From Escherichia coli (GTDB taxonomy: Bacteria; Pseudomonadota; Gammaproteobacteria; Enterobacterales; Enterobacteriaceae): a stretch of DNA of 64,000 nt. Positions 9,201-12,959 of the stretch are shown piece after piece. Positions within the stretch are counted from its first letter, which is position 1; the number at the start of each line of letters is the position of its first letter. The stretch lies in NCBI RefSeq assembly GCF_003334255.1, contig NZ_QOWU01000025.1; one strand, given 5' to 3'. The position numbers were made by a program.

Positions 9201-12200
9201 AGTTCGGCGCTTTACCACCGCGCAGGATCACATGGCCGTCCGGATTCCCCTGAGTTTGTAGCAACGCAACCTGCCCTGCCTGGTTAATGCCAACAAAACG
9301 GTGCGGCTGGGCGGCGGCGCGCATAGCGTTAATTGCTGTTGCCAGACTGCCGTCGGTGCCGTTTTTAAAACCAACCGGCATGGAAAGCCCGGAGGCCATT
9401 TCACGGTGAGTTTGCGATTCCGTTGTACGAGCACCAATTGCTGACCAGCTAAACAGATCGCCCAGGTATTGCGGGCTATTCGGATCTAACGCTTCCGTCG
9501 CCAGTGGCAGTCCCATATTCACCAGCTCAAGCAGCAATTTACGCGCGATCTGCAGCCCGGCTTCTACATCAAAAGAGCCATCCATATGGGGATCGTTAAT
9601 TAACCCTTTCCAGCCGACAGTGGTACGGGGTTTTTCAAAATAGACGCGCATTACCAGATAGAGGCTATCGCTGACCTCTGCGGCAAGGGCTTTAAATCGA
9701 CGAGCATATTCCAGAGCAGTTTCCGGATCATGAATGGAACAAGGACCACATACTACCAGCAGACGAGGATCGCGCCCGGCGATAATATCTGAAATGCTTT
9801 TACGCGAGTCAGCAATCTGGGCTTCTTGTTGCAGGCTCAATGGAAAAGCGGCCTTCAGTTGTTCCGGAGTCATTAAAACCTGTTCGTCGGTAATATGTAC
9901 GTTATTCAGCGCGTCTTTTTGCATGATGGCGATCCTGTTTATGCTCGTTTGCGATAGTTGATCCTCAGCGAGGATGACGTAACGATAACACATAAAGTAA
10001 AGTTTTCAATCCATATTTCGTACATTTTTATTTACACAGGCAATTTAGTCGCGCTTTCAACCCTTACCTCTGTATAGATAAATTTACACTCCCTTTGAAA
10101 ACAATCCGCTATGCTTTGAAAAAGGAGAAAGAAATGATGAAAAAGTTTATCGCCCCCTTGTTGGCTTTACTGGTTAGCGGATGTCAGATTGATCCTTATA
10201 CTCACGCGCCAACCTTGACCAGCACCGACTGGTATGATGTCGGTATGGAAGATGCGATATCGGGCAGCGCCATAAAAGATGACGATGCATTTAGCGATTC
10301 ACAGGCGGATCGCGGTCTATACCTTAAAGGATATGCCGAAGGACAAAAGAAAACTTGCCAGACCGATTTTACTTATGCCCGAGGACTTTCCGGTAAAAGC
10401 TTTCCTGCCAGCTGCAACAATGTTGAAAATGCCAGCCAACTGCATGAAGTATGGCAAAAAGGGGCTGATGAAAATGCCAGCACAATACGATTAAATTAAT
10501 TAAAACCCCACAAATAAATTAAACATAAGATTTTACTCATTGTGTTTTATTTCTCACATTGATGACGGTCGCATGAAAAAATGATATTTTAATGAGCATT
10601 CTGAAAAAATATCGATGCATTTCGAGCGAAGATGGTGGGGATCCCTGAATGCGTTTTTCTCACCGACTGTTCTTACTTCTGATTCTCCTGCTGACGGGAG
10701 CACCAATACTCGCTCAGGAGCCTTCTGACGTTGCGAAAAACGTGCGTATGATGGTTTCCGGTATTGTCAGTTACACCCGCTGGCCTGCGCTATCAGGGCC
10801 ACCAAAGTTATGTATCTTTTCATCTTCACGTTTTAGTACCGCCCTACAAGAGAATGCCGCGACATCTTTGCCTTATCTGCCTGTCATCATTCACACTCAA
10901 CAAGAGGCGATGATTTCAGGCTGCAATGGTTTTTATTTTGGCAACGAGTCACCGACATTCCAGATGGAATTAACCGAACAATATCCGTCAAAGGCGTTAT
11001 TATTAATTGCCGAACAAAATACCGTGTGCATTATTGGTAGCGCCTTTTGTCTGATCATCCACAATAATGACGTCAGATTTGCCGTAAACCTGGATGCCTT
11101 ATCGCGTAGCGGTGTAAAGGTCAACCCGGATGTCTTAATGCTCGCACGGAAGAAAAATGATGGATAACGATAATTCTCTTAATAAGCGCCCCACGTTTAA
11201 AAGAGCATTACGCAACATCAGTATGACCAGCATATTTATCACTATGATGCTGATCTGGTTGCTGCTTTCCGTGACCTCGGTGCTGACCCTGAAACAGTAC
11301 GCGCAAAAAAACCTGGCACTGACAGCAGCAACAATGACTTACAGTCTGGAAGCAGCTGTCGTTTTTGCCGATGGCCCTGCAGCAACTGAAACACTGGCAG
11401 CGCTGGGCCAGCAAGGGCAATTTTCAACTGCAGAAGTACGTGATAAGCAGCAAAATATTCTGGCATCCTGGCATTACACCCGTAAGGATCCAGGCGATAC
11501 TTTCAGTAATTTCATAAGCCACTGGCTCTTCCCTGCCCCCATCATTCAGCCGATTCGTCACAATGGTGAAACCATTGGCGAAGTACGCTTAACCGCTCGC
11601 GACAGTTCAATCAGCCATTTTATCTGGTTTTCGCTCGCCGTACTGACCGGTTGTATTCTGCTGGCATCAGGCATCGCAATTACCCTCACCCGCCATTTGC
11701 ACAATGGCCTGGTAGAAGCGCTGAAAAATATCACCGATGTCGTACATGATGTGCGTTCCAACCGCAATTTTTCCCGACGAGTTTCGGAAGAACGTATCGC
11801 TGAGTTTCACCGCTTCGCTCTCGACTTCAACAGTCTGCTGGATGAAATGGAAGAGTGGCAGCTTCGTTTACAGGCTAAAAATGCGCAGCTTCTACGTACC
11901 GCGCTACATGACCCATTAACCGGGCTGGCTAACCGCGCAGCGTTTCGTAGCGGCATCAACACGTTGATGAACAATTCCGATGCCCGAAAAACGTCGGCGT
12001 TACTATTTCTTGATGGCGATAATTTCAAATACATCAATGATACCTGGGGTCATGCGACGGGCGATAGAGTCTTGATTGAAATCGCAAAACGGTTAGCTGA
12101 ATTTGGCGGGCTGCGACATAAAGCATACCGCCTGGGCGGCGATGAATTCGCTATGGTGCTCTATGATGTACAGTCGGAATCTGAAGTGCAGCAGATATGT

Positions 12201-12959
12201 TCAGCACTGACACAAATCTTTAATCTCCCGTTTGATCTTCATAATGGCCATCAGACCACCATGACATTAAGCATTGGTTACGCGATGACCATTGAGCACG
12301 CCTCTGCGGAAAAATTACAAGAGCTTGCCGATCACAATATGTATCAGGCCAAACACCAGCGTGCCGAAAAGCTGGTGAGATAACAAGGATATATCGATAT
12401 GATAAAGCACCTGGTAGCACCCCTGGTTTTCACCTCACTAATACTGACTGGCTGCCAGTCCCCTCAGGGAAAGTTTACTCCTGAGCAAGTCGCCGCTATG
12501 CAATCTTATGGATTTACTGAATCCGCCGGCGACTGGTCGCTGGGCTTATCAGATGCCATTCTGTTCGCAAAAAATGACTACAAATTGCTCCCGGAAAGCC
12601 AGCAACAGATCCAAACCATGGCAGCTAAATTGGCCTCGACAGGGCTAACACATGCCCGTATGGATGGACACACCGATAACTATGGTGAAGACAGTTACAA
12701 CGAAGGCTTATCATTGAAACGGGCGAATGTCGTGGCCGATGCATGGGCTATGGGTGGACAAATTCCACGCAGCAATCTCACCACACAGGGTTTAGGAAAA
12801 AAATATCCCATAGCCAGTAACAAGACCGCCCAGGGCCGCGCCGAGAACCGCCGCGTCGCAGTGGTGATTACTACCCCTTAAAACACCAGCAAACAGATAA
12901 AAAAGGGCCAGCCAATTGGCCAGCCCTTCTTAACAGGATGTCGCTTAAGCGAAATCTTA

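Follow-up and report, generated by a model that had tools for sequence, protein, structure and literature searches.

The yfiR-dgcN-yfiB cyclic di-GMP locus of Escherichia coli, its short yfiR/dgcN overlap and the plausibility of translational coupling

When a diguanylate cyclase and the protein that inhibits it are encoded by overlapping genes, is the making of the one tied to the making of the other? The question is raised by yfiR, dgcN (yfiN) and yfiB, which are adjacent, in that order and all on the plus strand (open reading frame listing and direct reading), in a 64,000-nucleotide (nt) stretch of Escherichia coli DNA (assembly GCF_003334255.1, contig NZ_QOWU01000025.1). We refer to this whole stretch as the window. 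An earlier, sequence-only reading had described the three genes as a known tripartite cyclic di-GMP (c-di-GMP) signalling module, had taken an 11-nt overlap of yfiR and dgcN to imply translational coupling, and had proposed the module as a regulator of a nearby autotransporter. We consider it very probable that this is the chromosomal yfiR-dgcN-yfiB locus of the YfiBNR/HmsCDE family of envelope-sensing c-di-GMP systems, with a coupling of yfiR to dgcN, deduced from the junction, as part of the explanation. Megablast of positions 10400-13100 against complete E. coli genomes matched 5426 of 5426, in each case on the chromosome and at 97–100% identity, and the locus is thus an already known one: a well-studied operon whose parts, structures and phenotypes have been published. 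As a discovery, a textbook c-di-GMP module that every E. coli genome carries has little weight; that a feedback-free cyclase is coupled in translation to an inhibitor encoded ahead of it is a hypothesis that can be tested cheaply.

The proteins of the module and their proposed action

The gene limits given in Table 1 are also those of the RefSeq/PGAP annotation in strains that are 100% identical over the stretch, and the coordinates (10649-12881), shared orientation and RLGGDEF motif of the sequence-only reading are borne out. The same is true of the identity of the module, for which the passing of NCBIfam equivalog cut-offs, the Pfam domains and the best PDB matches agree. YfiR scores 165.6 bits against equivalog NF053586 (cut-off 85), its residues 33-167 match Pfam DUF4154 (YfiR/HmsC-like, E 7e-31), and its best PDB match is YfiR of Pseudomonas aeruginosa (E 9e-16), with all four cysteines of that chain aligned to the four of the E. 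coli protein (55, 92, 127 and 134). The N-terminus of YfiR has a basic N-region, a hydrophobic core in Kyte-Doolittle windows and an I-L-A motif. YfiB scores 231.4 bits against NF053585 (cut-off 128) and 347.9 bits against NF007424 (cut-off 155). Its best PDB match is P. aeruginosa YfiB (E 1.4e-31), it carries the OmpA domain that the earlier reading had assigned to it, as found by Pfam, and it keeps F and W at the two sites, F48 and W55, where mutations activate the P. aeruginosa protein. DgcN scores 503.9 bits against NF007423 (cut-off 325), with P. aeruginosa TpbB/YfiN as its best PDB match (E 5.5e-29), and two hydrophobic segments flank its CHASE8 domain, the periplasmic part that is reported to bind YfiR.

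Loss of the GGDEF active-site motif, which the sequence-only reading had named as grounds for abandoning it, was not found, because the motif and the catalytic residues are invariant (D286, N294, D303, R325, G327-F331 and K399) in an alignment of 10 family members at 29–76% identity. That DgcN should be a degenerate, catalytically inactive GGDEF protein, acting only as a scaffold or receptor, appears extremely improbable to us. The positions that contact metal, guanine and phosphate are all retained, the match to the GGDEF domain is strong (E 2.3e-43), and c-di-GMP synthesis and GTP depletion by E. coli YfiN have been published (PMC10127611). Nothing in the sequence speaks for an inactive protein. 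The RxxD inhibitory site upstream of the GGDEF motif is absent on reading the sequence, with GLRH in its place, and this bears on feedback, not on catalysis. Its absence from the DgcN of the window agrees with the statement that E. coli YfiN is without I-sites and hence able to deplete GTP when derepressed (PMC10127611).

The earlier reading had also listed HAMP among the domains to be sought, and here the outcome differed: Pfam HAMP gave no match in DgcN even at E<=10, and a PDB sequence search with residues 151-252 returned no HAMP-containing chain. Two of the 10 aligned YfiN homologues do carry Pfam HAMP, in the same columns as the DgcN linker, and in a metagenomic homologue (locus L092) the match covers residues 184-232 (E 1.9e-7) and aligns without gaps to E. 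coli residues ~185-233. Within the linker F205, R208, E216, N225, L227 and E230 are invariant in the 10-sequence alignment. Weak NCBIfam alignments also place DgcN residues 169-236 on the second transmembrane helix and HAMP region of BaeS and residues 159-404 on LapD. Homology of the linker to HAMP is supported through the aligned homologues, that is, by transitive homology. We also observed that DgcN residues 17-232 (window 11157-11850) match NF053592, 'sensor histidine kinase, YfiR-like protein-associated', below its cut-off (E 8e-23); it appears from this that the input module that senses YfiR has been put to use with kinase outputs as well.

The mechanism that we adopt comes from the literature, mostly on P. 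aeruginosa and partly on E. coli (PMC4992967, PMC10127611, PMC2837407). DgcN consists of two transmembrane helices, a PAS-like periplasmic CHASE8 domain, a GGDEF domain free of the RxxD feedback site and, ahead of the latter, the divergent HAMP-like linker. YfiR, which is secreted and stabilised by disulfides, binds the periplasmic domain and holds the cyclase off; reducing conditions misfold YfiR and so set the cyclase free. Sequestration by the outer-membrane lipoprotein YfiB may also remove YfiR. The c-di-GMP then made, under envelope or redox stress, leads to more cellulose and biofilm and less motility. Repression of YfiN by YfiR from the periplasm has been reported in P. aeruginosa, Salmonella and E. 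coli (PMC4992967, PMC10127611), and loss of yfiR in E. coli raises c-di-GMP and cellulose/biofilm. The outputs reported for E. coli YfiN are cellulose/biofilm, motility, cell-division arrest and growth arrest by GTP depletion (PMC4992967, PMC10127611): under envelope stress the protein relocates to the Z-ring and blocks division, and GTP depletion follows its overproduction on gluconeogenic carbon. Natively expressed YfiN-GFP was too weak for detection (PMC4992967). Sequestration of YfiR by YfiB at the outer membrane has been shown in P. aeruginosa. Knockout of yfiB in E. coli left YfiN relocation unchanged (PMC4992967), a result that speaks against the YfiB part of the mechanism, and because of it we regard the sequestering step as carried over from P. 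aeruginosa.

The yfiR/dgcN junction and the case for coupling

The 11-nt overlap of the earlier reading is correct for the longest open reading frames. A second in-frame ATG at 11160 leaves an overlap of 8 nt, and we compared the two starts in a survey of DgcN loci from one genome per species, in each of which yfiR, dgcN and yfiB were located. The survey gave 31 orthologous junctions from other species, namely those of a divergent 'E. coli' (L003), E. albertii, Citrobacter, Enterobacter, Kluyvera, Yokenella, Leclercia, Pluralibacter, Cedecea, Pseudocitrobacter and Salmonella arizonae. In all 31 the sole N-terminal start is an ATG at −8, the position of 11160, and the triplet that matches the ATG at 11157 is AAG, AGC, ATC, GTC or some other non-start codon. 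Because only the second ATG is present throughout these orthologues, the conserved overlap, judged on the aligned junctions, is 8 nt; the length of 11 nt is peculiar to E. coli, as a by-product of the extra ATG. The extra ATG arises from an A-to-T change that also makes K170N in YfiR (AAG to AAT), and would change no more than the nominal length of the overlap, 11 nt instead of 8. Annotated DgcN has 408 amino acids (aa) in E. coli, compared with 407 aa in Citrobacter and 406 aa in both Enterobacter and Salmonella; the shorter lengths in the relatives agree with a start at the conserved second ATG. The annotated 408-aa DgcN may therefore start one codon too early by comparison with the conserved ATG, a point of use for annotation. 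The TRAINSPOTTER N-terminomics supplements contain no yfiN, dgcN or yfiR entry.

Within the species the junction hardly varies. A 61-mer around it is found exactly in 4126 E. coli genomes and with 1–3 mismatches in 1282; about 22 of the 5426 lack an intact 61-mer. Three variant junctions that were read differ at DgcN codon 9 alone, and across these and one further junction split by IS1 the sole within-species variant is N9H in DgcN. A 61-mer carrying AAGATG was matched by no E. coli genome. From these comparisons the tandem ATGATG is apparently specific to E. coli and fixed there.

How far does the arrangement extend beyond the close relatives? The best 120 matches of a DgcN homologue search were all from Enterobacteriaceae, and distant loci were reached through representatives of YfiR clusters. 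On the contigs of seven distant YfiR homologues (28–42% identity) a CHASE8-GGDEF gene lies directly downstream in six. The spacing is +1 (TAAnATG) in four of these six and −4 (ATGA or GTGA) in the other two, and in five of the six an OmpA-family gene comes next, at −4, −4, +5, −4 and −1. A tight junction is thus seen family-wide, in three geometries within −8 to +1 nt, which fits translational coupling.

Several features of the E. coli junction point the same way. Counted from the annotated start, dgcN lies at −11 to yfiR, and from the conserved ATG at −8; the latter value is within the −8 to +6 range in which 24% of co-directional E. coli gene pairs are found (PMC10666635). Reinitiation needs overlaps or very short distances, and such spacings are enriched among gene pairs whose products form complexes (PMC10666635). 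A weak Shine-Dalgarno-like GGAAG stands inside the 3' end of yfiR, and the computed duplex energy with the anti-Shine-Dalgarno sequence is lowest in strength for dgcN among the four genes compared (−3.5 kcal/mol, against −5.2 for yfiB, −5.5 for yfiR and −8.7 for yfiL). A conserved RNA structure masking the dgcN start was considered and rejected: RNAalifold on 21 orthologous junctions gave a weak consensus fold of −1.24 kcal/mol with no compensatory pairs and no conserved hairpin, and 197 of 200 shuffles of the E. coli segment fold more stably than the segment itself (z = +2.1). With no masking structure, coupling, if real, would therefore proceed by termination-reinitiation rather than by unmasking. 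Since dgcN appears to start inside the last yfiR codons (the conserved ATGnnTAA, at −8) with the weakest ribosome-binding site of the cluster, we suggest that most DgcN probably comes from ribosomes that have just terminated on yfiR, and that synthesis of the feedback-free cyclase would thereby be tied to synthesis of its inhibitor. Translational coupling of yfiR and dgcN is, from the layout of the junction, plausible.

A number of observations weigh against coupling. The −8 junction is the third commonest among co-directional E. coli genes, after −4 and −1 (PMC10666635), so that the arrangement alone is weak evidence, and its conservation among enterobacteria is largely one inherited state. 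The window holds four other overlapping pairs, yfiH/rluD (4 nt), nrdH/nrdI (4 nt), nrdI/nrdE (28 nt) and, on the minus strand, ratA/yfjF (ratB), whose overlap at 23062-23072 is also 11 nt; because of these and of the frequency of −8 in E. coli, the yfiR/dgcN arrangement is suggestive and not exceptional. The GGA, 7 nt upstream of the conserved ATG and invariant across 21 aligned orthologous junctions, could support independent initiation of dgcN. Some relatives keep dgcN without yfiR or yfiB, so the cyclase can exist uncoupled, and in our literature search coupling was neither discussed nor measured for yfiR-dgcN.

These same observations feed an alternative that we take seriously and rate a little below an even chance, namely that the overlap is operon compaction without regulatory meaning, that translation of dgcN is driven independently by a GGA(A) site of its own, and that the figure of 11 nt is an accident of the K170N codon change. 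It would account for the lack of the first ATG in all 31 orthologues outside E. coli, and both the commonness of such overlaps and the orphan dgcN genes are in its favour; the conserved GGA within an unstructured, A-rich region is typical of an independent start site. It has to contend, however, with the very weak Shine-Dalgarno pairing and with the finding that every family junction examined, in whichever of the three geometries, lies within −8 to +1 nt. Moreover, inhibitor and enzyme make up the kind of pair for which enrichment of short overlaps is described, and native levels of DgcN are very low.

Coupling of yfiR and dgcN could be given a stronger meaning, that of a conserved stoichiometric fail-safe by which the cyclase never outnumbers its repressor YfiR. 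We hold this to be doubtful on the present comparisons. If true, the feedback-free, GTP-draining DgcN would be translated almost only by ribosomes finishing YfiR, and the tandem ATGATG of E. coli would add a second reinitiation codon. Natural insertions of IS1 and deletions at the junction in E. coli isolates would then lead to uncoupled, hyperactive c-di-GMP production, much as yfiR mutations do in the small-colony variants of P. aeruginosa.

Natural variants and surroundings of the locus

How control is lost in nature can be seen from variants of the locus: IS1 inserted in yfiR, deletions across the junction and dgcN genes without their partners. In three E. coli sequences IS1 is inserted in yfiR, each time at a different site (L086, NZ_CP159694.1; L094, NZ_AP027494.1; L095, NZ_CM129852.1). 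In L086 it lies exactly in the yfiR/dgcN overlap, with a 9-bp duplication (AAATGATGG), and cuts dgcN off from yfiR and from the GGAAG; in L095 it is accompanied by loss of the 3' half of yfiR and most of dgcN. Z142-3 is the strain with IS1 at the junction, and LR-24 one with yfiR::IS1. Two rare E. coli proteins, P0004 and P0005, are in-frame fusions by junction deletion, joining YfiR residues 1-143 or 1-155 to DgcN from residue 27 or 23; they also carry V126E or V126D, adjoining YfiR Cys127. Orphan dgcN genes, with neither yfiR nor yfiB, occur in Enterobacteriaceae UBA3516 (L027), Pseudescherichia vulneris (L028) and Escherichia sp. ESNIH1 (L031); they are syntenic, beside aroF and at 62–66% identity, with yfiL present in the latter two. 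Apparent pseudogenes are a dgcN with an internal stop in E. albertii NBRC 107761 (L004) and a yfiR with an internal stop in Enterobacter asburiae (L015), and in S. arizonae (L035) yfiR has a stop, dgcN a frameshift, and yfiB is missing.

The order of genes in the window is clpB ... pheA, tyrA, aroF, yfiL, yfiR, dgcN, yfiB, rplS-trmD-rimM-rpsP, ffh ... smpB, ssrA, ypjA, and the features discussed here are collected in Table 1. The spacing between dgcN and yfiB is 15 nt. A sigma-70 promoter scan of the yfiL-yfiR interval found no convincing plus-strand promoter. The GC-rich hairpin beyond yfiB is likely, from its sequence, to be a shared (bidirectional) terminator of yfiB and rplS, the palindrome being preceded by an A-run on the plus strand also.

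Table 1. Positions of the features described in the text (window coordinates, nt; residues of the respective protein, aa)
Feature	Residues (aa)	Position (nt)	Strand	Remarks
yfiR	172 aa	10649-11167	+	periplasmic repressor of DgcN; YfiR/HmsC family, DUF4154
Predicted YfiR signal peptide	1-22	10649-10714	+	cleavage before QEP; by inspection, no predictor
Shine-Dalgarno-like GGAAG, weak		11148-11152	+	inside yfiR 3' end, 7 nt before conserved ATG
yfiR/dgcN overlap, longest open reading frames		11157-11167	+	ATGATGGATAA, 11 nt
Conserved overlap core		11160-11167	+	ATGGATAA, 8 nt; ATGnnTAA
dgcN (yfiN)	408 aa; 407 from second ATG	11157-12383	+	inner-membrane diguanylate cyclase
DgcN transmembrane helix 1	~24-45	11226-11291	+	Kyte-Doolittle windows; approximate limits
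Periplasmic CHASE8 sensor domain	45-146	11289-11594	+	Pfam PF17152, E 3.3e-33
DgcN transmembrane helix 2	~155-178	11619-11690	+	Kyte-Doolittle windows; approximate limits
Divergent HAMP-like linker	~185-233	11709-11855	+	conserved ...EF..F..DFNSLLDE
GGDEF catalytic domain	249-403	11901-12365	+	Pfam PF00990, E 2.3e-43
GGDEF motif	327-331	12135-12149	+	RL directly before motif (RLGGDEF)
yfiB	160 aa	12399-12881	+	outer-membrane OmpA/Pal-like lipoprotein
YfiB lipobox LTGC	16-19	12444-12455	+	Cys19 the only cysteine of YfiB
YfiB OmpA domain	55-151	12561-12851	+	Pfam OmpA, E 1.8e-17
GC-rich hairpin, 14-bp stem		12900-12931		between convergent yfiB and rplS; terminator-like scan, minus strand
ypjA/ehaD	1526 codons	24890-29470	−	intact; only large autotransporter gene of the window

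The proposed role of the module as a regulator of the nearby autotransporter found no support. The gene concerned, ypjA/ehaD, is encoded on the other strand and begins 12 kb past yfiB, with some 15 unrelated housekeeping genes between (rplS-trmD-rimM-rpsP, ffh, ypjD, yfjD, grpE, nadK, recN, bamE, yfjF, ratA, smpB and ssrA). Our literature search found no link of ypjA to c-di-GMP or YfiN, only incidental co-mentions of ypjA and c-di-GMP in three papers, with neither term in titles or abstracts. A dedicated control of this adhesin by the module would draw on the general principle that c-di-GMP often controls adhesins and on the co-occurrence of the two in one 64-kb window. We regard it as most unlikely, given the distance, the genes that intervene up to and including ssrA, the mobile island of ~20 kb that separates the two further in other strains, the decay of ypjA to a pseudogene in some otherwise identical strains, and entirely different neighbour genes at the distant yfiRNB loci. 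The ssrA gene (transfer-messenger RNA, tmRNA, 24367-24729) is an island-integration site; the window has no integrated island there, ypjA following ssrA directly, and strain Z217-2, identical over the yfi region, has ~20 kb of integrase- and relaxase-bearing DNA between the two. An internal stop interrupts ypjA in strains Z217-2 and G1/2.

Elsewhere in the window, the annotation of strain G1/2 gives several pseudogenes just beyond ypjA (30300-35500): ypjCB and an alpha-amylase-like gene, each interrupted by an internal stop, and part of a recombinase gene. An Rfam scan of the whole window had no match between 10 and 13 kb; besides the tmRNA it matched the small RNA RyfD (2928-3066, −), the Phe leader (6372-6497, +), a tRNA annotated as tRNA-Ile (32509-32581, −), naRNA4 (54878-54955, +) and MicA (61553-61624, +).

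Comparison with known systems

The locus of the window is the same as YfiRNB of E. coli K-12 and CFT073 (DgcN, UniProt P46139), and nothing of substance differs. It resembles the YfiBNR system of P. aeruginosa (YfiR PA1121, YfiN/TpbB PA1120, YfiB PA1119) in gene order and domain sets and, within the proteins, in the four YfiR cysteines, the YfiB lipobox and OmpA domain, and the F and W of the activation sites. The identity between the two is, however, just ~30–40%, and P. aeruginosa YfiN has the RxxD inhibitory site (R319; PMC2837407) where E. coli DgcN has GLRH. The outputs also differ, being Pel and Psl in P. aeruginosa and cellulose, motility and division in E. coli. At the distant loci of the family that were sampled the junctions are +1 or −4, in contrast to −8 in E. 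coli.

In Yersinia pestis the counterparts are HmsC for YfiR, HmsD for YfiN and HmsE for YfiB, cotranscribed and with the same inhibitory and activating logic. HmsCDE differs in controlling the Hms biofilm, of the poly-N-acetylglucosamine (PGA) type, in fleas, and hmsE has a long CsrA-regulated leader, whereas yfiB of the window follows dgcN after 15 nt. We observed one distant yfiR-yfiN-yfiB homologue (L089 1-5696, GCA_022602515.1) directly downstream of genes like pgaB, pgaC and pgaD, for poly-N-acetylglucosamine synthesis; this adjacency may be functional, by analogy with the HmsCDE control of the Yersinia Hms biofilm. Salmonella enterica has orthologous yfiR-dgcN, with the same −8 junction in the one read, that of S. 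arizonae, but no yfiB (also PMC4992967), and in the S. arizonae representative both yfiR and dgcN are disrupted.

Finally, the yfiR-dgcN pair is like the reinitiation pairs of Huber et al. (2019, 2023) in being co-directional, with stop and start within the efficient −8 to +6 range and with products that interact. The E. coli pairs tested there were mostly at −4 or −1, whereas yfiR-dgcN lies at −8, and its membership of this group is suggested by the sequence of its junction.

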